Virus record (IMG/VR): IMGVR_UViG_2541047775_000006 | DNA length: 31,163 bases | Strand: one strand, 5' to 3' | Source of the DNA: a virus | Taxonomy: Duplodnaviria; Heunggongvirae; Uroviricota; Caudoviricetes | In this document: piece after piece, positions 684 to 26,276 of the stretch | How positions within the stretch are numbered: the first letter of the stretch is position 1 | Layout: each line of letters begins with the position of its first letter | Notes under the pieces: model-generated | The model's database searches: none | Seen by the model: only the letters and a program-made list of their open reading frames with translations | Told to the model about the DNA's origin: nothing | Made by a program: the position numbers and the translations under genes

Positions 684-3600
684 TGCATAATCCTCCGTCC
701 CGACGTGATGACTGCATAATTGACACAACCCTGCTGTCGATCAGATCCACCAGTCCCTTGGCTGACTGCGTATCTATCTCGCCATTGCTCCCTTTATTCT
801 GAATACTGATGTGATATACGGGAGAATAAACAAATCCACCGCCACCATTCACATTGCCAATGGCTCTGACTCCAAGAGAGCCGTCCGCTGCCCGAGTCAG
901 TGGCATGATAGCTTCAGGCCCGGCCTCGCCCATCAGCCCGGCACCTTTCGCAAAAGCAAAATACGTCGGGGTATCCACAATGGTGTTACTGTAAGCACTC
1001 AGATTTGCCGATGTATAAACACCACCTTTTGCGTTTGCCACTGCACCGGAAAGCCAGTCGCCGACTGTACCAAGCCATCCTCCGGCACCGGACATGCTTT
1101 TGGAAAGTGACTTCAGCCCGTTAACGATGGCAGCGTTCATCAGAATTTTTGAAACTTCCTGGAGAATTGAACTCCCCCAGTTTCTCCAGTCCACAACATT
1201 TCCGGCCAGTGCATCGGAAATATTTGATACCAGCCCGTCCATAGTGGAAACGACAGCATCTGCCGCCTGCGAAGCATAATCGGTGGCACTGTCTGCCCAG
1301 TTCGTCAGTCCCTCCTGGAGTCCGGCATTCCAGTTACTGCGTAAAGCATCAGCCTTTGCATAATAATCCTGCTGATCGCTGAGACGCTCTTCCAGATATT
1401 TTTCATTCAGAGATTTTTCCTGTTTCCACAGGGCTTCTTCAATTTCTCCGGCCTGATACTGTCTCAGTAGCTCGTTATTTTTCTGCTCAAACTCCTGCCG
1501 GATGCTCCACATTTCCTGAAGTCGTTCACGCATCCGTGAGCCTTCACCATATCCCAGTAACTGAGCCTCATTTGATGCTCTGACACTGGCATTACTGTCC
1601 GCCAGACTGCTCTCATACGCAGCAAGCTGCTCACGAATCTTTTTCTGGTCGATGAGTGCTGCATTCTGCAAAAGCGTTTTTTTCTGCGCTTCTGACAGGG
1701 TTGATAATTCGCCCTGGCTGACCTGATATTTCATCTTAGCCAGTTCAGTATTCTGCCCTGCCAGTGCTATTTGCTCTTTTTGCTGTTTAATCAGTTGCTT
1801 ATAAGTATCTTCTATTTTTTCCGCTTCGGTCTTTTTATGCGCTTTGGGTTTATTTGCCTGGTTATTTCGCCATGCATCCAGTGAGTTATTTATATAATTC
1901 AGTCTTGCTGTCTGATACGCCTCTCCCACAAAGCCGAGATCATCCGCAGCATAACCCAGGCGGGCACGCTCACGAGCTTCCCCCTTCAGGCGGGACAGAG
2001 CCAGTTCGCGCTCGCTGTTATTCAGTGCGGTCTGCTGTTTATCATCCAGGGTTGCCTGTGGTAGCCGTAACGGTACATTCACCAGCCCCTGTCGCTGCTG
2101 AAGTAATTCATTACCGAGCCCGAGAAGGCGATTAAACTCGGTATGCTGCCCATTCATGATCAACAGGGACTGATACGCTTTGTTTTGTTCCGCTGCCTGT
2201 TGACGGATCAACGCCACCCGTCGCTCCTCCAGCCCGGCAAGCACATCCTGAATGGATTGCGCTTTGCCCTGCATTTGAGTGAGGCGAGACTGTTCAACTG
2301 CCAGTTGATTTGTTGCTTCTGCAAGCCCTTCTGTGACAGTTTTTACCGACGTCATGTGGTTAATCATAAAACCGTTATCGGTTGTCCAGCCCGGGTTTGC
2401 CAGCACATACTGATAGCCAGCAATTTTTTCCTGTAAGGATTTAATCTTACTTTTCTGCTCGTCAATTAACCTGTTTTGCTCCTTCAGTGCCTGTCGCGTC
2501 TTTTCCTCATTATCTGACGCTTCAGGAAGCGACATTGCCGACGTTTTCTGGCGAATTTCGTCGATTGTTGCGGCATACTGGCGTGCAGATTCTCTGGCCT
2601 GCTCCTGATTCTGATACATCGTGTACCAGGCCGCAGCCCCCAGCATGACGAGTCCCGGCACACCACCAACCAGCCCCAGCGCGCCACTTAATAAACGACT
2701 CCCCACTGACGTAACATTATTCAGCGTTGTCTGTGCCGCTGTTCTGGCCGCAATATTACGGGTAAGTGACACCTGGGCAGCTGTCAGCTTCGCTTCTGCT
2801 ACGGCCTGCCTTTCGGTACCGCGAGCAGCAACAACCGCCTGTTGCGCACGATAAACCGCCGCACGCGCCCTGGCGGTTGCTATCTGTGTCCCCCGAAGTT
2901 GCACTTCAGCAAGAGCCACTTCGTTTCTGGCTGCAGTAATTAATCCGGCAGTTGCAGATCCAGCAGACGACGCCATATTGCCAAAATATCGGGCTACCCC
3001 GACGGCAACCAGAGCACCAGCAGCGGTTGCCACGGTGTCAATATTGCCTGCAATACCATTCAGCACACCGGAGAGCGTCTTCGTCACTCCGCTTGCCTCG
3101 TTCGCACCACCAACCCAGGCCATAAAGGCGTTTTCAACTTTGGTTGCAGAGGATGAAACCGTATCAGGCATTGCTGCATATTCATCACGCAACGCCCCAA
3201 GCTGACTAATCAGTGCAGGAACAACCTTATCGGCGGTCAGTTTTCCGTTATCCGCCATGGCCTTCAGATCCTTACGGGCAACCCCCATTCCCGCAGCCAG
3301 CGCACGAATAACACGATCGCCGTTCTCATTCACCGAGTTAAACTCTTCACCGCGCAGCACTCCCTGCGCCAGTGCCTGACTGAACTGCGTGATCACCGAA
3401 CTGGCTTCTGCTGTACTGGCACCGGATAATTTCAGGCCCGTGGAGATCGCCTCGGTGACTTTCAGTACCTCCTCAGAACTGTAACCATACTCCCGCATGG
3501 AAGCTGCAGAACGGGCAAAAAGGCTGGCGTTATCAGAAAACGCCGTCCCCGTTCTCTGGCTGATCGCCATTAATTCACGCTGTGATGACTGAAAATCATC

Positions 3601-6941: not shown

Positions 6942-8159
6942 TTATTTGCCAGTGAGCGCCTTGATGGCTGCCACATCTTCCAGCACACAGTCAAAACGAT
7001 GGAAAGCCAGAAATGCCACCTGATCAAACTCAGCATAACGCTCAACCAGACGTTTCAGTTCCATATAAGTAACGCGGCGAATGATAAAGCGGTTGAAATC
7101 CCCCAGGAAAATGAATTTTTTTCCGGTACCAATCCCGTCAATAGCCTGATCAATAACATAAGGGATCCCCAGCACAGTAGCCGGCGTACCGCCTGCAATA
7201 TCCGGCAGCCATAACGGGCGTTTCTGCCCATCCTCCATCTCTTCAATAGTCTGCAATGTGGCATCATTGAATGCCCAGCGGTATTTCGGCCCACCACGAT
7301 ATGCCGGATCAATGGCATGTTTCAGGGCATTCATTTCTTTCCAGGTGAAAGCGGCAGAGGCTGCAGTCTGGATGGTTCCCGTCACCGACGCTGCCAGCCC
7401 TTTTGGCTGTAACGGTGATCCCGTTCCGGTCCCCTGAACCAGATATTTTGCCTCTCCACGACCAATACGCTGGGCAATACGGTTTGCCAGATAAGATTCA
7501 ATATCCACCCCACTGTCCTGGAGCAGCTCATTGGACACACGAATTATTTTTGATGACAGCTTTTTAGCCCCCAGAATAGCGGTCCCGAACGTCACATCCT
7601 GTTCCGTTGCGGCTGTATTTTCCGCCAGCAGTTCGCCCTCTTCAGTCGTGCCATCAGACGTTGACCAGGTGATATCCTGCCCGGTTGATGTGGTCAGAAG
7701 TTGCGCCACACTGGCAATCCCGCCATAAGCCTTCATGGTGTCAATGATTTTGTTACGCATCTGCGTGGGCACCGTATATCCGCCCTGAGAATCCGTTGTT
7801 ACACTCTGAGCCCGCAGTTCACGCATCAGATTACGCTCTTCAGCATTCAGTTCTGCAAATCCGGCACGCAGAAAACGGTTAAATGCCGCAGCGCGCTTCT
7901 CTTCCACCGCCTTTTTCCCGTTCTCCGCCTCATTATTCTGGCGCTCTTCCGGCCCGGACTCATCCACATATGCCTGATCCTGACGGCGCAACTCTTCTTC
8001 ACGGGCGATTTGCTCATCCAGCGCATCCAGCTCAGCTTTCGCCCTGTTCCACTCTGCCCGTTGCTCATCAGCCCATGCGTTATCACCAATTTTTTCATGC
8101 AGTGCACGCATATCCTTTGCAATGGTGTTTCGTTTTTGCTTCATCTCATGAAGTTTCAT
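6942..8159 (-). CDS. major capsid protein, HK97 family
   Basis: 405-aa ORF with coiled-coil N-terminal delta region and conserved C-terminal core; flanked by protease and portal. Confidence 0.9.
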   Translation of the reverse strand: MKLHEMKQKRNTIAKDMRALHEKIGDNAWADEQRAEWNRAKAELDALDEQIAREEELRRQDQAYVDESGPEERQNNEAENGKKAVEEKRAAAFNRFLRAGFAELNAEERNLMRELRAQSVTTDSQGGYTVPTQMRNKIIDTMKAYGGIASVAQLLTTSTGQDITWSTSDGTTEEGELLAENTAATEQDVTFGTAILGAKKLSSKIIRVSNELLQDSGVDIESYLANRIAQRIGRGEAKYLVQGTGTGSPLQPKGLAASVTGTIQTAASAAFTWKEMNALKHAIDPAYRGGPKYRWAFNDATLQTIEEMEDGQKRPLWLPDIAGGTPATVLGIPYVIDQAIDGIGTGKKFIFLGDFNRFIIRRVTYMELKRLVERYAEFDQVAFLAFHRFDCVLEDVAAIKALTGK

Positions 8160-20284: not shown

Positions 20285-21226
20285 TCACCCCCTGAATCCT
20301 TCCGGGATCTGGCTGTAGTCCACGTTGTCGTAACTGGCTTTGAAGTACGGGTCTTCACGTTTTTCTGTGTGCGTGCTGACGGACGGCGATAAGCGCAGGG
20401 AAAGCTCATCCCATTTTTCCCGCAACTTCGACGGGCTGAGCACGTTACGGCACCAGAACGGATCACGGCTGACGCGGCTGTACATCTCGCAGATTTGTTT
20501 GTGAGTACGACCATCCTGCACACACATCAGGCGAATTTCGTTTGCCCATGCTGTCCAGTTCGGTTCTTTGGGACGAACCACCTCGCCGTCACATTCGGCG
20601 GCCTGCTCGTACAGGGCGATGATTTTTTTCCAGAGCCACTGTGCGCAGGTCAAATCATCCTGCGTTCCCCACTGGCGCTTTTTAGGGCTGAATACAACCG
20701 CATCAGGATGGCGAGTTAAAAAATCCTGTTCAGCCGTCTGCGTGTCCGGTTGCAAAGCGTCCGGACGAGAAGGTTTTTTATCTGACGGATCATGTTTTGA
20801 TTTTACTGACGGATCCCCGCCAGATTCTGACGGGTGAAAACACGCTTTTTTGCCAGATTTCGACGCATCAAATTTTGACGGGTCAGATTTTGATGCGTCA
20901 GATTTTGACGGGTCAGAATCTGACAGTTGAGAAAATGCCGCAGCCTGAAGCTTCGCAACGTTAAGCTGATAAACATTCGACGCATTGCGGTTACCCTGGC
21001 GACGCGCCTTACGCGTTAACCAGCCTTCTGCTTCCAGCCGTGCGATAGCCGTTCTGACGGTACTCATCCCCGCGCCAATCTGGCGGGCAATGGTTTCAAT
21101 TGATGGCCAGCACACACCCTCGTCATTACTGAAATCAGCCAGACGGGCCATAATTGCCACACTGGATAATTTCATGCCTGACGCTGCGCAACCATCCCAT
21201 ACATAGCCGGTTAATTTGGTGCTCAC
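20285..21226 (-). CDS. replication initiation protein (O-like, N-terminal HTH) containing origin iterons
   Basis: 313 aa; GTG start with AAGGAGGTG SD, GTGA overlap with rha stop. Central low-complexity linker (SDSDPSKSDASKSDPSKFDASKS) is encoded by tandem DNA repeats. Confidence 0.75.
   Translation of the reverse strand: MSTKLTGYVWDGCAASGMKLSSVAIMARLADFSNDEGVCWPSIETIARQIGAGMSTVRTAIARLEAEGWLTRKARRQGNRNASNVYQLNVAKLQAAAFSQLSDSDPSKSDASKSDPSKFDASKSGKKACFHPSESGGDPSVKSKHDPSDKKPSRPDALQPDTQTAEQDFLTRHPDAVVFSPKKRQWGTQDDLTCAQWLWKKIIALYEQAAECDGEVVRPKEPNWTAWANEIRLMCVQDGRTHKQICEMYSRVSRDPFWCRNVLSPSKLREKWDELSLRLSPSVSTHTEKREDPYFKASYDNVDYSQIPEGFRG
20781..20930. repeat. tandem approx. 15-bp iterons (putative replication origin) inside O-like gene
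   Basis: At least 6 tandem copies of CAGATTTTGACGGGT-like units (20821..20929) plus degenerate ACTGACGGATC copies upstream, next to an AT-rich tract. Analogous to lambda ori inside O. Confidence 0.7.
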
Positions 21227-21768
21227 TTACGCACCTCCTTATGCTTTTCGTTCAGTTCCGAGTCCACCAGCCCGGCAACGAATACACCATCGTTGATGTA
21301 GTCGTAGAGCGATGAAGCCAGCGGAGACTGAACTGAAACCAGCATCGGATAAAGTTGTTCTAACCAAACGCGGTGAATTTCAGCCATGTAGAGGTAAACA
21401 ACGTGGGCATTGTGCGCGACACATGAAGTATCAACCTTTCCGATCAGCGCCTGTTCCATCTGGTTAAAGGCATTGATGTATGCCTCTTTGAACCGGGCTG
21501 CACGTTTGCCAGTAAAGCCCATAGCAAGGAACGCGAAGCCATCGCGGGTGATTTGATAGCAAGGTAGTTTGCGGCCTGTGCAATCGGTGTAATCACTGGG
21601 CTGAAAATTCAGCTCAGTGAATTCAACAGAGCACTCAAGCGTCTGGATTTTTTGAATAACGTTTTTGTGCTGCTTGCAGAAATATTCGGCAACGGCCAAA
21701 GAAGAGGTAACAGCCTTCCCATGGATAACATCAATTTTAGGGTGAGTTTGGGTAGGGGTGGTTGCCAT
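21223..21768 (-). CDS. Rha family phage regulatory protein
   Basis: ATG at 21768 with GAGGATG SD gives MATTPTQTHPKIDVIHGKAVTSSLAVAEYF...ITRDGFAFLAMGFTGKRAARFKEAYINAF. Track ORF extends to 22062 through non-coding repeats. Confidence 0.75.
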   Translation of the reverse strand: MATTPTQTHPKIDVIHGKAVTSSLAVAEYFCKQHKNVIQKIQTLECSVEFTELNFQPSDYTDCTGRKLPCYQITRDGFAFLAMGFTGKRAARFKEAYINAFNQMEQALIGKVDTSCVAHNAHVVYLYMAEIHRVWLEQLYPMLVSVQSPLASSLYDYINDGVFVAGLVDSELNEKHKEVRK

Positions 21769-21930
21769 AGTGACATCCTCATGTGCGAATTTTGAAAACT
21801 CACCACATGGGACGCCAATCACAGAGGTGGTGAGACGTACAGGGTTGGCGTAACCGGTCGCACATGACCCCGGCGCATCTTTCGATGCCCCTGCACGCCC
21901 CACCATAATTTGGATGTGAGGAAACGTGCG

Positions 21931-21954
21931 CAAAAAAACCGCTGAAGCGCGGTT
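21931..21954 (-). terminator. terminator-like hairpin (tR1-like) upstream of rha
   Basis: Plus-strand aaaaaaAACCGCtgaagcGCGGTT; on the minus strand a stem then 7 U, about 85 nt downstream of the DUF4222 gene stop. Confidence 0.45.
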
Positions 21955-22039
21955 ATGCGCATGTGCGAATTTCAGGACGCCAATCCCGGCACCCGCTTTA
22001 TAAGGTGCCTGAACAGTGTAACGTCCCGGAATGGCAGAA

Positions 22040-22231
22040 TCAATCATTACTGGTTTGCTCATGATCGTCCCTTATCTCCCTGAACTTTTGCCTGAAATGC
22101 TCAAGTGGGCTGAAGCATTCATGTTCATAGCCTTCACGGAGGTAGATAACCCGTTGTGTTTCCGGCTCCCAACGAATGACTCTGACGGGCACTCCGTGGT
22201 GATCTTTGAACCAGCGGTTAACTTGTCGCAA
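22040..22231 (-). CDS. small hypothetical protein (DUF4222-like)
   Basis: 63 aa [40 protein letters not shown]...; TTG start at 22231 preceded by AAGGAGA at optimal spacing. A paralogue sits at 29157..29399. Confidence 0.6.
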
Positions 22232-22410: not shown

Positions 22411-23048
22411 GCGTTAGTTTCTCCACAACCAGAAGCAATCGACGCCACGACGCCCGGAGCTGCACACTCGCGGGCGTTACTCTTTTCCGGCGCACAAAAA
22501 ACACGAAATAACAGTGTTAAATGCTCCTGCCACTTCGCCATTACTTGGTAGCTGTTCTCTTCGATTTGCTCACGCTCAGCCTGGTCAATAACTCCATCAG
22601 CAGTTGCCTTGCGTAAGTACTGGGAATGCTTGCCAATCCATTCTATTGACTCCATCAGCCGCTGATTAATGTCACCATTGTCAATGTCATCAATGACCAC
22701 CAGCGGCACAAACACCCCATTACTACGACGGGCTATTGCATCCGTTACATGCCTGGTACCACTGGCATCCTGTAAAACCATGGCCCACTCAAGTGGAAAA
22801 ATTTGATCCCCACCGCTACGCAGTCTGTTATGCAATTGATCTTTTGCTGGGGTGATATCATCAGATTTATACAAACCAAGAATTTCTGCTGCTTCCTCAT
22901 AGCCATGAGGTAAATCAGCAATCGTTCTTCGTATTGCTGCCACCAGCCATGCTGGTTGCTTATCAACTTTCCATTCAGGTTCTTTACCCACGTTTAAGCC
23001 CTCATATCTGTGGTTTCTGTAAATCGATTTATCCATTAGATTTTTCAT
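22407..23048 (-). CDS. early regulatory protein at the cII position (function unassigned)
   Basis: Probable ATG at 23048 ([13 protein letters not shown]...), just 5' of the cro stop; track ORF start 23105 would overlap cro by 77 nt. Confidence 0.55.
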
Positions 23049-23229
23049 AAAGCTCAGGTTTAAATGGCAACCGTCCGCAAGTTCTATATGCAGCCTCTGC
23101 TGCACGTCCTTTTGGAATTAACTGGCCAGGACGGTTTCGCCACTGATAAACGGCTTCAGTTGTTATGCCGAAAAAAGCAGCAACTTTCTCAATGCTGCCG
23201 AAGTAGCTTTCGATATCGTCAGTCGTCAT
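23029..23229 (-). CDS. cro: Cro-like HTH repressor
   Basis: 66 aa, divergent from cI across a 97-bp operator region; HTH-like segment VAAFFGITTEAVYQWRNR. Confidence 0.7.
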   Translation of the reverse strand: MTTDDIESYFGSIEKVAAFFGITTEAVYQWRNRPGQLIPKGRAAEAAYRTCGRLPFKPELYEKSNG

Positions 23230-23326: not shown

Positions 23327-23953
23327 ATGGAAACGGTTGGTCAGCGTATAAAAGCTCTGAGAAGAGTTACCAGAACGTCCCAGAAAGAATTGGGTAAATT
23401 TTGTGGAGTAAGTGACGTTGCTGTGGGGTACTGGGAGAAAGACATCAATGTCCCTGGTGGGGAAGCACTTTCAAAATTAGCGAAGTTCTTCAATACGTCA
23501 ATAGATTACATTCTTTATGGTGCGGAGTTTGAAGGCAAACTCGTCACAAACATGCGCAGAGTTCCTGTAATCTCGTGGGTTCAGGCTGGGCAGTTTACTG
23601 AGTGCAGGACAGCAGAAGTGTTTAGTGAAGTAGACAAGTGGGTAGATACATCATTAAAGATTGGTGATAACTCATTTGCATTGGAGGTTAAAGGCGACTC
23701 CATGACTAACCCTAACGGCCTCCCAACAATACCAGAAGGCGCAACAGTGATTGTAGATCCTGATGCAGAACCCCGGCATGGAAAAATAGTCATCGCTAGA
23801 CTTGATGGAACAAACGAAGCCACAGTAAAAAAATTAGTTATCGATGGCCCTCAAAAGTTTTTAGTGCCATTAAATCCCCGGTACCCCAACATCCCGATCA
23901 ATGGTAATTGCCTCATCATTGGTGTAGTCAAAGGAGTTCAATACGAACTCTAG
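23327..23953 (+). CDS. cI: CI-like repressor (HTH_XRE plus S24 LexA-like peptidase)
   Basis: 208 aa; N-terminal HTH (QKELGKFCGVSDVAVGYWEKD), C-terminal peptidase with Ser in GDSM and Lys in VKKL; GGTGCTCCT ATG. Confidence 0.9.
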   Translation: METVGQRIKALRRVTRTSQKELGKFCGVSDVAVGYWEKDINVPGGEALSKLAKFFNTSIDYILYGAEFEGKLVTNMRRVPVISWVQAGQFTECRTAEVFSEVDKWVDTSLKIGDNSFALEVKGDSMTNPNGLPTIPEGATVIVDPDAEPRHGKIVIARLDGTNEATVKKLVIDGPQKFLVPLNPRYPNIPINGNCLIIGVVKGVQYEL

Positions 23954-24006: not shown

Positions 24007-24017
24007 CTTGCCATTAA

Positions 24018-24033
24018 AACTAAGTTAAGTTAG
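24018..24033. promoter_or_regulatory. OL-like operator site (ACTAAGTTAAGTTAGA), possible pL region
   Basis: 16-bp site matching the OR half-site pattern; possible -35 TTGCCA (24009..24014) and -10 TAGATT overlapping it, directed to the plus strand. Confidence 0.4.
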
Positions 24034-24142
24034 ATTTTATATCAAAGATAACGAACAGGCAGGACGCCCACGAAGTAGCCGCCTGGGGCATATGAAGTCC
24101 AGGATGATTCGTTAGTACCAAAAAAGCGCCCTACCGGACGCT

Positions 24143-24175
24143 TCGCTCTTTAAAAATCAGTAACCCTCACTTTGG
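24143..24175 (+). promoter_or_regulatory. boxA-like motif with short downstream hairpin (nutL-like)
   Basis: CGCTCTTTAAAAAT resembles lambda nutL boxA CGCTCTTAAAAATT and rrn boxA (from memory); followed 11 nt later by CCCtcacttTGGG. Confidence 0.35.
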
Positions 24176-24309: not shown

Positions 24310-24804
24310 TTATGCTTGTTGGTCATCATTAATATCCGTTAGTTCATTCTCTAGAGGTAGATCTCCCGCACACCAAGCTATAAATTTTTCTTTGGTTGTT
24401 AAATCGTACTTAGTTGGAACACCAGCAAAAATACAGGCCCGAATGAAAGCCGCTCGTTCAAGTGATTTCCATGGATTACTATCAGTATCTTGGATTTTTA
24501 AATACCTAGCTTGCAACTGATCTTCAGGAAGGGTATCAGACTCAATCAGCAGTCTTTTGTAATGCCTCGCTTGCTCTTTAGACATTCCAGCCTCTTGGCC
24601 AAACTGATAGACCAACTGAAGAACCGAAAGTACGGCAACAAACAAACCGAAAATAAATAAATTACTGTACGGGGCGAAAACTGAAAAACCGAGAACGATT
24701 AACATCAACGTTATTAATTTATCAATGCGAGTTAACAACGTGTAATTCATCTTCTCCAATACATAAGAGTAGTGAACATAAAATTTATAATCGTCTCTGG
24801 TCAT
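24310..24804 (-). CDS. unrecognised membrane protein, convergent to cI (candidate exclusion/defence moron)
   Basis: 164-aa uninterrupted ORF in AT-rich DNA; hydrophobic segments LITLMLIVLGFSVFAPYSNLFIFGLFVAVLSVLQLVYQF, then a charged soluble C-terminal domain. No family recognised by eye. Confidence 0.6.
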   Translation of the reverse strand: MTRDDYKFYVHYSYVLEKMNYTLLTRIDKLITLMLIVLGFSVFAPYSNLFIFGLFVAVLSVLQLVYQFGQEAGMSKEQARHYKRLLIESDTLPEDQLQARYLKIQDTDSNPWKSLERAAFIRACIFAGVPTKYDLTTKEKFIAWCAGDLPLENELTDINDDQQA

Positions 24805-24905
24805 ATTAGTCTCAGTTTTCCTTGGGTGGTTTTGGAGGAACTGGAGGCTTTTGTCTTAACGGCACATGCCTCTCCTCATACTTATCTACACATAGATCCA
24901 TATAA

Positions 24906-25053
24906 ATCCTTATCGTTGTTGGGGAGGGTTACATAATAACCAAATCCTTGTTGTTGGGGAATAACCAGGTCCACCTCGCCTGATGTGGCTAAAAGCAGGC
25001 ACATAACAGCTAAGTATTTTCAACCAGAGAGAATCCTTAGCGTTGTGGTGAAT
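24906..25053. repeat. three imperfect approx. 20-bp direct repeats flanking a 15-bp palindrome
   Basis: ATCCTTATCGTTGTTGGGGA (24906), ATCCTTGTTGTTGGGGA (24944), ATCCTTAGCGTTGTGGTGA (25033); palindrome GGTTACATAATAACC (24927..24941). Confidence 0.6.
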
Positions 25054-25193
25054 GCGCAGGCTGATGCGCGAAAGACATTGCAGCTATTGCGGAAAAGAGC
25101 TGTTCGGCGGGGCAATTAAACGCCCGTGAGAGTCTGAAATAACCGCAAGCCGGAGATCAGCACCGGTCACCACAACAGCCACTGCTTTGGCGG

Positions 25194-25322
25194 TACCAGT
25201 TTGTACACTTGCTTCCGGCTGGTACCGCTCTTTTTACAAAACAGAGAAGAGCATCACCGGACGACGGGCTCATAACCCAATCCATCCGGGCGGCTGCCAC
25301 CGCAGGTGTTCTTCTCTGTTTT
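25194..25322 (+). promoter_or_regulatory. structured leader of early-left operon: hairpin, boxA-like motif, long stem-loop
   Basis: GGTACCAG...CTGGTACC (25194..25228) followed by GCTCTTTTTACAAAA (boxA-like), then a perfect 13-bp inverted repeat AAAACAGAGAAGA / TCTTCTCTGTTTT (25238..25250 and 25310..25322) enclosing a GC-rich 59-nt loop, ending about 35 nt before the rdgC-like ATG. Confidence 0.5.
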
Positions 25323-25358
25323 GTGGAGAAACTAATACATTGTGCAGAGGAAAATAGA

Positions 25359-26276
25359 ATGAAATTACCAAAATTTCGTAACGCAATTGTGTACCGAGCA
25401 ACATTACCTAGTATACAGGCTATTGAAGGTCATCTTCTCGAACTCCCTTATTCTGAAATCGGGGAAACAGAATTTTCACGGTCCTCTTTTGTAGAGAATC
25501 CTGTCACTGGTGAACTGGTAACTCCGATATCTGGTGGGTACGCAATGGTAATCCGTCATGATCAGAAAATAATTCCCCGACATGTCGTCATGAAAGAAGC
25601 TAATTCTCGAATCCAAACAATCGAAAATATGTCCGGGAATAAATTAAAGCGTGCCGAACGACTGGCCATTATTGATAACGTACGAGTAGATCTATGCAAA
25701 CAGGCATTTGTTAAGTCTACGCTGATTCTTGCATTGTACAGCACTGATGAGAAATTATTGGTAATCAACACAACCAATAAAATAATAGCCGGTATGGTAT
25801 GCGCAATGCTGATTAAGGTTGTCGGTTCAGTGAAAACAGAAACAATCAACATCAGTGATATCAAGAATGGACTGACTACACGCCTGAATAACTACATCAA
25901 TGGTGCAGCCAATGCATTTGAAGGATTCACTGTCGGAAATTATATTCAGCTATCACGCTACGCAGATCAAAAGGAAATTATTCGCTACTCAGCTGAGCAT
26001 GAGTCAATTCAAAGCGAACTGGCCGATAGCCTTAGTAGTAGTTTCACTGCTGATAAAATGGAGTTATCCGGTTGCGGTGTGACCTTCATTCTTACCGAAA
26101 ATTTCCATTTTTCGCGCATCAATACTCAATCTCAGACATTTAATGATGAAGATGATAAAGCATTCCAGTGGCGTCATCAGACTGGCGCTGACCTTTTCCA
26201 ATTCAGCAAGGTAGTTAATTTGATGTGTGACCTTCTTTCTTACAAAGAAGATAAAAGCCAAAATCCAACAACTTAA
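25359..26276 (+). CDS. RdgC-like recombination-associated protein
   Basis: ATG at 25359 with GAGG SD gives MKLPKFRNAIVYRATLP... (RdgC begins MLWFKNLMVYRL as I recall); central VIRHDQKIIPRHVVMKEA...KLKRAERLA parallels RdgC. Track ORF start 25209 lies inside the leader hairpin. Confidence 0.6.
   Translation: MKLPKFRNAIVYRATLPSIQAIEGHLLELPYSEIGETEFSRSSFVENPVTGELVTPISGGYAMVIRHDQKIIPRHVVMKEANSRIQTIENMSGNKLKRAERLAIIDNVRVDLCKQAFVKSTLILALYSTDEKLLVINTTNKIIAGMVCAMLIKVVGSVKTETINISDIKNGLTTRLNNYINGAANAFEGFTVGNYIQLSRYADQKEIIRYSAEHESIQSELADSLSSSFTADKMELSGCGVTFILTENFHFSRINTQSQTFNDEDDKAFQWRHQTGADLFQFSKVVNLMCDLLSYKEDKSQNPTT

Follow-up and report, generated by a model that had tools for sequence, protein, structure and literature searches.

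Three short direct repeats lie downstream of the early-left promoter (pL) in a caudoviricete sequence of 31,163 nucleotides (IMG/VR record IMGVR_UViG_2541047775_000006; hereafter the window, meaning the whole stretch), and the question they raise is whether they are binding sites for a regulator of pL or of the neighboring moron genes, the scar of an insertion, or something else. The region that holds them is the immunity region of a lambdoid prophage of the SfV/e14/CPS-53 type, and 1860 of 5426 complete E. coli genomes, about a third, match this stretch. We find that the third repeat, R3, contributes a strand to each of 2 adjoining RNA helices (H1 and P1) at the edge of a structured RNA module. 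As such, the repeats are probably paralogous copies of 1 unit, made of the 3′ strand of H1 and the 5′ strand of P1, with R3 standing in a complete module and the other 2 copies, R1 and R2, being truncated stubs.

All 3 copies are found where the earlier note had placed them, with start-to-start spacings of 38 and 89 nt (Table 1). A degenerate repeat pattern has 2 matches at no more than 2 mismatches in the whole window, where 0.06 are expected, and the extended units reach scores of 33, 27, and 28 when aligned locally with gaps, compared with shuffled means of 13-15 (P <= 0.001). The repeat itself thus stands, but not its proposed length of 20 bp: the true unit is longer (AACCA..AATCCTT-N0-3-GTTGTKGKGAAT), and that of R2 continues as a degenerate copy of the sequence that follows R3 (GAAT..CAGG..CTGATG), with a 10-nt insertion within. 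The same arrangement of 3 units is found again in 41 of 88 unique related loci. The palindrome described as embedded in the array is present in the window but is no general feature, being limited to this moron type; SfIV-type relatives with R1 and R2 have ATAACCAGATTAACCG or a similar sequence in place of GGTTACATAATAACC. Similarly, the surroundings are not a noncoding stretch of 430 bp, as had been stated; the interval between the long open reading frames (ORFs) is about 555 bp (24805-25358), and it holds a 29-codon ORF.

R3 is composed of the 3′ strand of H1 (ATCCTTAGCGTT) followed by the 5′ strand of P1 (GTTGTGGTG), and the conserved junction of the module comes next. Its left half pairs with 25001-25013, and its GTTGTGGTGA forms an inverted repeat with TCACCACAAC at 25167-25176. 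Specifically, the fold of 24995-25240 contains H1, a 9-bp P1, the internal hairpins P2 and P3, and a terminator hairpin (z = -2.8), and an alignment of the SfIV paralogue shows that this terminator corresponds to the terminator hairpin in the model of STnc100, a prophage small RNA (sRNA). The module shares the strand of pL and lies ~1 kb downstream of it; pL is the promoter expected to transcribe both the module and the repeats, and the module would then belong to the early-left leader. Helix H1 is also found with unrelated sequences: when the 15 nt ahead of P1 are matched against the upstream sequence, at least 8 contiguous complementary nucleotides are found in 67% of modules vs 33% of shuffles, and the recurring helices often have 12-15 complementary nucleotides of quite different sequence. 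In relatives, 2 unrelated interiors of ~115 nt are found between R3-type arms, i.e. variant A in the window, mEp460, and Stx2 phages, and variant B in SfIV, SfV, SKA5, and e14, and the ends of variant A alone recur in many unrelated phages. The right end of homology falls at 25335/25336 in 81 of the 88 related loci, just past the long hairpin that follows the terminator.

The scaffold of the module (P1, AAU, P2, a variable insert, and P3) is present in at least 120 viral contigs and at least 120 bacterial genome records, based on a scan of viral contigs and bacterial genomes for exact matches to a 21-nt core (TGAATGCRCAGGCTGATGYGC). Among the matches listed, the genome records are mostly from Alpha-, Beta-, and Gammaproteobacteria; Pseudomonas, Burkholderia, Erwinia, and Rhizobium records are among the hits, along with many others. 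The core sequence strings gave no match in the literature library that was searched. The scan yielded at least 101 unique modules of 86-238 nt, with the conserved cores UGAAUGCRCAGGCUGAUGYGC and GCCGG-AGAUCAGCA-CCGGC and a covarying closing helix that abuts P3, and the window sequence at 25040-25178 shows every feature that defines the family. In the collected modules, P1 has a variable sequence followed by invariant U-A and G-C pairs, the P2 consensus is GCRCA-GGCUGA-UGYGC, and the loops of P2 and P3 are mutually complementary (GCUGA and UCAGC).

The helices of the scaffold covary. P1 has 5-7 variable pairs with up to 5 pair types per position (101 unique modules), the variable pair of P2 is G-C 96 times and A-U 5 times with zero mismatches, and compensatory changes are also observed in P3. 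In an alignment of 63 sequences (A1), 95.4% of cells are paired and 13 pairs have changed on both sides (109 cells), giving a covariation score of 0.254 compared with 0.101 for shuffles (0 of 500 as high) and no more than 0.117 for slid partners. A covariance model of the scaffold scores 96.2 bits on the window module, which is so by construction given that this sequence is in the training alignment. However, the P1-like phage RCS47 and IME207 (a Klebsiella-infecting phage deposited as Salmonella phage IME207) carry copies with 98% identity across 143 nt, both beside tRNA genes, and this identity therefore supports the window module independently of model training.

Table 1. Features of the immunity region and early-left leader in the window, and hits of the scaffold covariance model; all the model hits given here are on sequences outside its training set.
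Feature	Position	Strand	Description
cro	23029-23229	-	P22_Cro type
Repressor gene	23327-23953	+	S24/helix-turn-helix
pL	24008-24036	+	TTGCCA-17-TAGATT; operator ACTAAGTTAAGTTAGA (24019-24034) overlaps
Structured pL leader element	24050-24160	+	Conserved; 3′ end is boxA-like CGCTCTTTAAAAA
Terminator-like site	24178-24162		Beyond the moron cassette, downstream
Moron cassette	24310-24901	-	29-codon proline-rich ORF and 164-aa ORF
164-aa moron ORF	24804-24310	-	Two transmembrane segments, judged by inspection
29-codon proline-rich ORF	24901-24812	-	MDLCVDKYEERHVPLRQKPPVPPKPPKEN
R1	24906-24925	+	ATCCTTATCGTTGTTGGGGA; putative stub, most decayed; copies H1 3′ strand and P1 5′ strand
Palindrome	24927-24941		GGTTACATAATAACC, 5-bp arms; between R1 and R2
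Candidate weak moron promoter	24933-24961	-	-35 TTCCCC in R2 reverse complement, 17-nt spacer, -10 TATTAT (24938-24933, within palindrome)
R2	24944-24960	+	ATCCTT---GTTGTTGGGGA; 3 nt shorter than the other copies
R2 pseudo-module	24944-24990	+	R2, GAAT, degenerate P2-like segment with 10-nt insertion
H1 hairpin	25001-25048	+	CATAAC-A-GCTAAG..(loop)..CTTAGC-GTTGTG; minimum-free-energy folds; left half of R3 is the 3′ strand
R3	25033-25051	+	ATCCTTAGCGTTGTGGTGA
Structured RNA module	25040-25178	+	~135 nt; P1 / AAU / P2 / variable insert / P3
P1 closing helix	25042-25050 with 25168-25176	+	5′ strand is the right half of R3
P2 hairpin	25054-25058 with 25065-25069	+	Loop GGCUGA; AAU junction precedes
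P3 hairpin	25149-25153 with 25163-25167	+	Loop AGAUCAGCA; directly abuts P1 3′ strand
Intrinsic terminator	25190-25235	+	GCGGTACCAG..CTGGTACCGC then TCTTTTT; inverted repeat and fold
Long imperfect hairpin	25236-25324	+	25 bp; between terminator and RdgC gene; closes the conserved leader cassette
RdgC gene	25359-26276		HD-domain gene also downstream
Model hit, STnc100 core of window	14774-14887		18.6 bits, E = 0.001; second-best in window
Model hit, SfIV variant-B copy			29.9 bits, E = 7e-7
Model hit, SKA5 variant-B copy			29.7 bits, E = 8e-7
Model hit, K-12 e14 variant-B copy			23.9 bits, E = 3.5e-5
Model hit, RCS47 STnc100-like unit			32.1 bits, E = 1.7e-7

R1 and R2 have no partner strands in the folds and give no hit to the scaffold model, and the R2 pseudo-module represents the 5′ third only, with no H1 partner and no P3. 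Among the 88 unique related loci, the left end of homology to the window falls at 24907-24915 (35 loci), at 24937 (2), at 24971 (44), or within the same moron (7). Homology ends on unit boundaries, and the boundaries of the R1 and R2 units are therefore mosaic joints, with 12 distinct classes of upstream neighbor joined there. R1 and R2 are absent from 44 of the 88 loci, in which the leader and the module are kept. SKA5 would be an early stage of such stub formation: its pL is followed by a perfect 92-nt 5′ stub of variant A, a cassette of ~530 bp, and then H1 with a complete variant-B module. The suggestion that the repeats are the scar of an insertion is thus essentially right, with truncated duplicates of the module edge located exactly on the breakpoints of moron swaps. 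Whether they travel with the moron had also been asked; they follow no particular moron, and instead stay with the downstream leader beside 12 kinds of upstream neighbor. Mosaicism in lambdoid phages involves short conserved boundary sequences at the joints of their genomes, and R1, R2, and the start of the leader likewise coincide with breakpoints between unrelated moron cassettes. Here, however, the boundary can be recognized as a duplicated piece of a functional RNA gene and is not an anonymous linker.

These data are consistent with the following scenario. R3 would form H1 with 25001-25013 on its left and pair with 25168-25176 on its right, closing a fold of ~135 nt in which P1 is followed by the AAU junction, the P2 hairpin, the variable insert, and a P3 stacked on P1, with the terminator ~15 nt further on, and this module would be read from pL within the early-left leader. 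R1 and R2 are most probably decaying tandem copies of the 5′ edge of the module, left by recombination that used that edge as a joint, and moron cassettes would have been inserted or replaced between pL and the module during those events. The stubs have no partner strands and are dispensable for control by CI and pL. They are located at the beginning of the leftward morons, and for this reason their reverse complement would now be the shared sequence directly upstream of the moron ribosome-binding sites.

Other explanations of the repeats fit these observations less well. Matches in 2 copies are common at so short a length, so the similarity of the repeats could in principle be a product of chance or replication slippage, unrelated to the neighboring features; this can be practically dismissed, because the pattern count, the gapped alignments, the coincidence of the units with homology breakpoints, and the recurrence of the three-unit arrangement in related loci all refute it. 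Three similar direct repeats in a noncoding region near a divergently oriented moron are also what iterated DNA-binding sites would look like, whether for CI, Cro, or another regulator of pL or the moron promoter, as the earlier note proposed. We consider this highly improbable. Palindromes of the CI/Cro operator type (ACTAAG-N4-CTTAGT, up to 3 mismatches) are of another sequence and are found at the right operator OR (23241 and 23290) and at pL (23983 and 24019), the pL operator being of the same type as those at OR, but none is present in 24805-25060, and pL lies ~900 bp upstream of the repeats. Furthermore, the irregular spacings, the indels between copies, and the absence of R1 and R2 from half of the related loci do not fit an iteron or regulatory direct-repeat array. 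R3 is half of 2 RNA helices whose covariation extends over hundreds of phages that differ in their repressors, and R3-type sequence is also found in virulent phages and next to tRNA genes in P1-like phages. Lastly, the same repressor and pL are found in phages with and without the stubs. For example, SfIV carries R1 and R2 while K-12 e14 does not, yet their repressor genes and pL/operator sequences are nearly identical, and R1 and R2 are thus not needed for CI control. For R1 and R2, this is the very outcome that the earlier note had named as refuting its reading.

It is also very unlikely that R1 and R2 serve as decoy partners for the 3′ strand of P1 (25168-25176) in the pL transcript and thereby modulate read-through of the terminator. 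By inspection, GUUGUUGGGGA could pair with UCACCACAAC with 2 mismatches, and the terminator does lie directly after the module; however, this pairing appears in neither the minimum-free-energy nor the centroid folds, R1 drifts among relatives with no compensating changes in the P1 3′ strand, and half of the related loci have no R1 or R2 while their module and terminator are unchanged. By contrast, a present role for the stubs on the minus strand is a tentative possibility, and one that is compatible with the stub origin we favor. Specifically, R1 and R2 would now be shared expression signals of the leftward morons, with the reverse complement of R2 providing a -35-like TTCCCC, the spacer providing the -10, and the reverse complement of R1 (CCCCAACAAC) being the start of a common 5′ untranslated region (UTR) upstream of the Shine-Dalgarno sequence of each moron. 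In line with this, CCCCAACAAC..AAGGA is located just upstream of the first moron ORF start in the window, and all classes with R1 have a minus-strand ORF whose start is 13-16 nt away from the edge of R1, with at least 4 unrelated families of first ORFs among them. The cassette has its own terminator-like site (24178-24162) and no recognizable promoter, and a positionally conserved candidate is found in the window (TTCCCC-17-TATTAT) and in locus L014 (TTCCCC-16-TATAAT). Still, this candidate scores 8 of 12 in the window and 9 of 12 in L014, promoter-like sites are at chance level (2 observed vs 1.3 +/- 1.3 expected, i.e. not above shuffles), and a stricter scan (at least 9 of 12 matches) finds no site. 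The SfIV type, which is the commonest, has only TAATCT at the -10, and morons are expressed in e14-type loci without R1 or R2. As such, the link to a moron promoter that the earlier note had drawn fails where it invokes iterated sites, but may survive in another form, with R1 directly upstream of the moron ribosome-binding sites; similarly, a weak promoter-like site does span R2 and the palindrome, although it does not exceed chance. A shared moron 5′ UTR or promoter at R1/R2 is therefore plausible and unproven.

Several points weigh against the view of R1 and R2 as stubs of an RNA module read from pL. We infer both the transcription of the repeat region from pL and its termination at 25235. 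The window module matches no Rfam family, even at E <= 10. The sequences used for covariation were chosen through exact matches to the P2 core, and the conservation of P2 and its loop is thus true by construction, while the filter for at least 4 contiguous P1 pairs, which 115 of 128 sequences passed, somewhat favors the P1 statistics. The constant distance of 13-16 nt between R1 and the start codons of unrelated morons points to a function that R1 has gained on the opposite strand, and "mere scar" may therefore be an incomplete description. Lastly, R1 and R2 are >90% identical wherever they are present; the loci that keep them are close relatives, and this high identity neither supports nor excludes selection.

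Given the spread of the scaffold, we wondered where it is placed in other genomes. Among 95 diverse modules, 20 share the strand of a CI/C2-like repressor gene and lie downstream of it, and 3 precede the start of an N-like gene by 15-67 nt. P22-like contigs have a boxA/boxB nutL on one side of the module and the N-like gene on the other, and P1 is lengthened to about 20 bp in such N-type copies; in an HK639-like contig (L142), the module is a separate element downstream of a putL-like sequence. A tRNA gene is found within 1 kb of 24 of 122 modules, on the same strand in all 24, compared with 7.8% of random positions. An intrinsic terminator follows at least 20 of the 101 modules, and several modules begin at a -10 element; in loci L228 and L240, pL abuts a complete module with no moron, and only a few nucleotides separate the start of the module from the pL start site. 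These contexts near repressor genes, nut/put sites, tRNAs, and terminators mean that the module is a separate unit that follows the antitermination site and precedes the first gene, or else is a stand-alone sRNA gene. Our best guess is that it would act as a processed or stable leader RNA related to STnc100.

STnc100 (Rfam RF02076) is the only curated relative of the scaffold. This sRNA and its relative PasD are homologous, Hfq-associated sRNAs of lambdoid and Stx prophages, described as having no known function (bioRxiv 10.64898/2026.05.13.724894; PMC12370729). The scaffold has the same architecture, i.e. a closing helix with GGUGAAU on its 5′ side, internal hairpins, a CACCGG..CCGG hairpin and then CACC on the 3′ side, and, a few nucleotides further on, a Rho-independent terminator. 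Both are also borne by prophages. The SfIV variant-B paralogue aligns to the full length of the STnc100 model, including the terminator, with 38.4 bits (E = 6.6e-7), which is below the gathering threshold of 47 bits, while the window module gives no hit to this model at E <= 10; modules in 18 other loci overlap no Rfam family. In turn, the scaffold model finds the STnc100 core of the window as well as the variant-B copies (Table 1). The differences are that the window module has another P2 and another insert, that it is found in the early-left leader, downstream of the repressor gene, rather than in the late region beside tRNA genes as STnc100 is, and that the scaffold is far more widespread, reaching phages of Pseudomonas, Burkholderia, and Erwinia.

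A bona fide STnc100 is present elsewhere in the window (14714-14913, minus strand, 140 bits), just downstream of 3 tRNA genes (14993-15239, minus strand). By its sequence alone, an ORF at ~15260-15500 on the minus strand, which ends just upstream, appears to have a C-terminus of AraC type. It may be the "AraC-like regulator" of the earlier note, and it is 10 kb from the repeats. In phage lambda, the scaffold model gives a weak hit (14.9 bits, E = 0.03) between tR′ and S (L251, 44855-44943, plus strand; CCGUUGUGCUGAAU...CAGCACAACCC). This may be what is left of a module in the late leader, at a site that holds tRNAs and STnc100 in other lambdoid phages.

The module also invites comparison with leader RNAs in the same operon position. 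In phage lambda, a structured hairpin processed by RNase III lies between nutL and the ribosome-binding site of N. The window module occupies the same slot of the operon, following the conserved pL leader element, but shares no sequence or structural homology with that hairpin; it might be processed by analogy, and no module was found in the N leaders of lambda and P22. In lambdoid phages without N, the put RNA of HK022 and the putL-like RNA of HK639 are cis-acting structured antiterminator RNAs directly after pL (PMC9378689). The window phage has no N-like gene either, and a terminator comes right after its module. However, blastn-short searches of 24900-25340 and 24040-24165 against the early region of HK022 gave chance matches only, the module model has no hit in the pL operon of HK639, and the putL-like sequence lies upstream of the module in related contigs. 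Unlike put RNAs, the module also occurs together with N and nutL, and in the tRNA arrays of virulent phages.

Other candidate identities were rejected. The core AUG CGC AGG CUG AUG CGC starts the SfIV_34 and ymfH ORFs, yet protein coding does not hold because module lengths have no 3-nt periodicity, changes in the helices are compensatory, the K-12 ORF is frameshifted, and the Shine-Dalgarno spacing is wrong by inspection. This K-12 pseudo-ORF, ymfH (L004, 3076-3387, frameshifted), overlies the variant-B module (3071-3197), the terminator, and the long hairpin, and is probably an annotation artefact over a structured RNA. No tRNA or transfer-messenger RNA was called at modules by ARAGORN (related loci only) or Rfam. 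The core motifs do not fit integron attC sites, the ends of IS200/605-type insertion sequences or miniature inverted-repeat transposable elements, type III antitoxin repeats, or RfaH ops sites; these were dropped because of the co-orientation with tRNAs and terminators and because no cognate protein genes are adjacent. The M3 RNA of phi80 is an RNase P substrate, hairpin-like without a T-loop, and an M3-like RNA of HK639 is annotated downstream of a CII-like gene; neither is the module. The svsR sRNA of NC-SV lies at the 3′ end of cI and is another RNA (PMC12803456). The co293 sRNA of e14, which lies near icd, is not this element either.

A more speculative view, which we regard as unlikely, is that the scaffold represents an unrecognized class of phage RNA that is very widespread and resembles tRNA in its topology. 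P1 stacked on a 5-bp hairpin resembles an acceptor stem on a T arm, the complementary hairpin loops recall the elbow formed by the D-loop and T-loop, and the freely variable arm at times includes a tRNA-like sequence. The core is invariant across several proteobacterial classes, among copies gathered by exact match to that core, and the module is placed after early promoters or in tRNA arrays; such an RNA could therefore engage host machinery that is universally conserved, e.g. by serving as a processing signal or as a decoy for tRNA-recognizing enzymes or nucleases. If so, the R1 and R2 stubs would be footprints of the mobility of the module between phages.

Some copies of the module lie within or among tRNA-like sequences. 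In 2 IMG/VR contigs (L224 and L166, modules at 7020 and 8139, oriented), the variable arm holds a nearly complete tRNA-like sequence with D arm, anticodon arm, and GGTTCGATTCC T arm. In RCS47 (L127, ~980-2320, downstream of dmt), H1-type hairpins and modules alternate, interleaved with tRNA-Asn and tRNA-Thr, and the array terminates in an STnc100-like unit with a T-run; a plp coding sequence annotation overlaps 1 of these modules. Several H1 loops, in RCS47 and in other loci, carry a T-arm-like GGTTCGAnTCC.

Upstream of the repeats, the structured pL leader element (24050-24160) forms the left border of the variable moron cassette. It is common to SfIV, SfV, SfII, e14, ST64B, ZF40, mEp237, SPN3UB, and Yersinia phages, contains a covarying hairpin (CCTGG/CCAGG in the window, CCCGG/CCGGG in e14), and terminates in a hairpin and the boxA-like CGCTCTTTAAAAA, whose counterpart in SfIV is AGCTCTTTAACAA. 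It may be the antitermination site (nut- or put-like) of these phages without N. In the moron cassette, the 29-codon ORF has a good Shine-Dalgarno sequence within the reverse complement of R1, and its stop is 7 nt ahead of the ATG (24804) of the 164-aa ORF. Small ORFs homologous to it are present in L014 and L125, and it could encode a polyproline leader peptide or a small protein. The moron protein has no match in Pfam or PADLOC. Elsewhere in the window, a C4 antisense RNA (21823-21910) and isrK (21932-22008), both on the minus strand, lie upstream of, and overlap, the start of a 279-aa ORF (21223-22062, minus strand), and RefSeq annotates a Rha-family regulator in the C4/isrK region of the identical AR_0013 prophage. 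The layout is presumably the known antirepressor-control arrangement of P1/P7 and Gifsy-type elements.

Overall, these findings offer a concrete anatomy for the early-left leader of SfV/e14-type prophages in place of a speculative operator array, and they indicate that K-12 ymfH has a structured RNA underneath rather than a protein gene. They also provide a worked example of moron exchange, in which recombination at the conserved edge of an RNA gene leaves datable stubs behind. The repeats are only modestly interesting in themselves; the RNA they derive from, which belongs to a barely catalogued scaffold, is the more valuable lead. It ties STnc100, a poorly understood sRNA, to a much larger family with strong covariation, whose members take a fixed slot after nut/put sites in temperate phages and are found in the tRNA arrays of P1-like and virulent phages. 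If the module is a processing signal or a mimic of a host factor, it would represent a general and unnoticed feature of early phage transcription.

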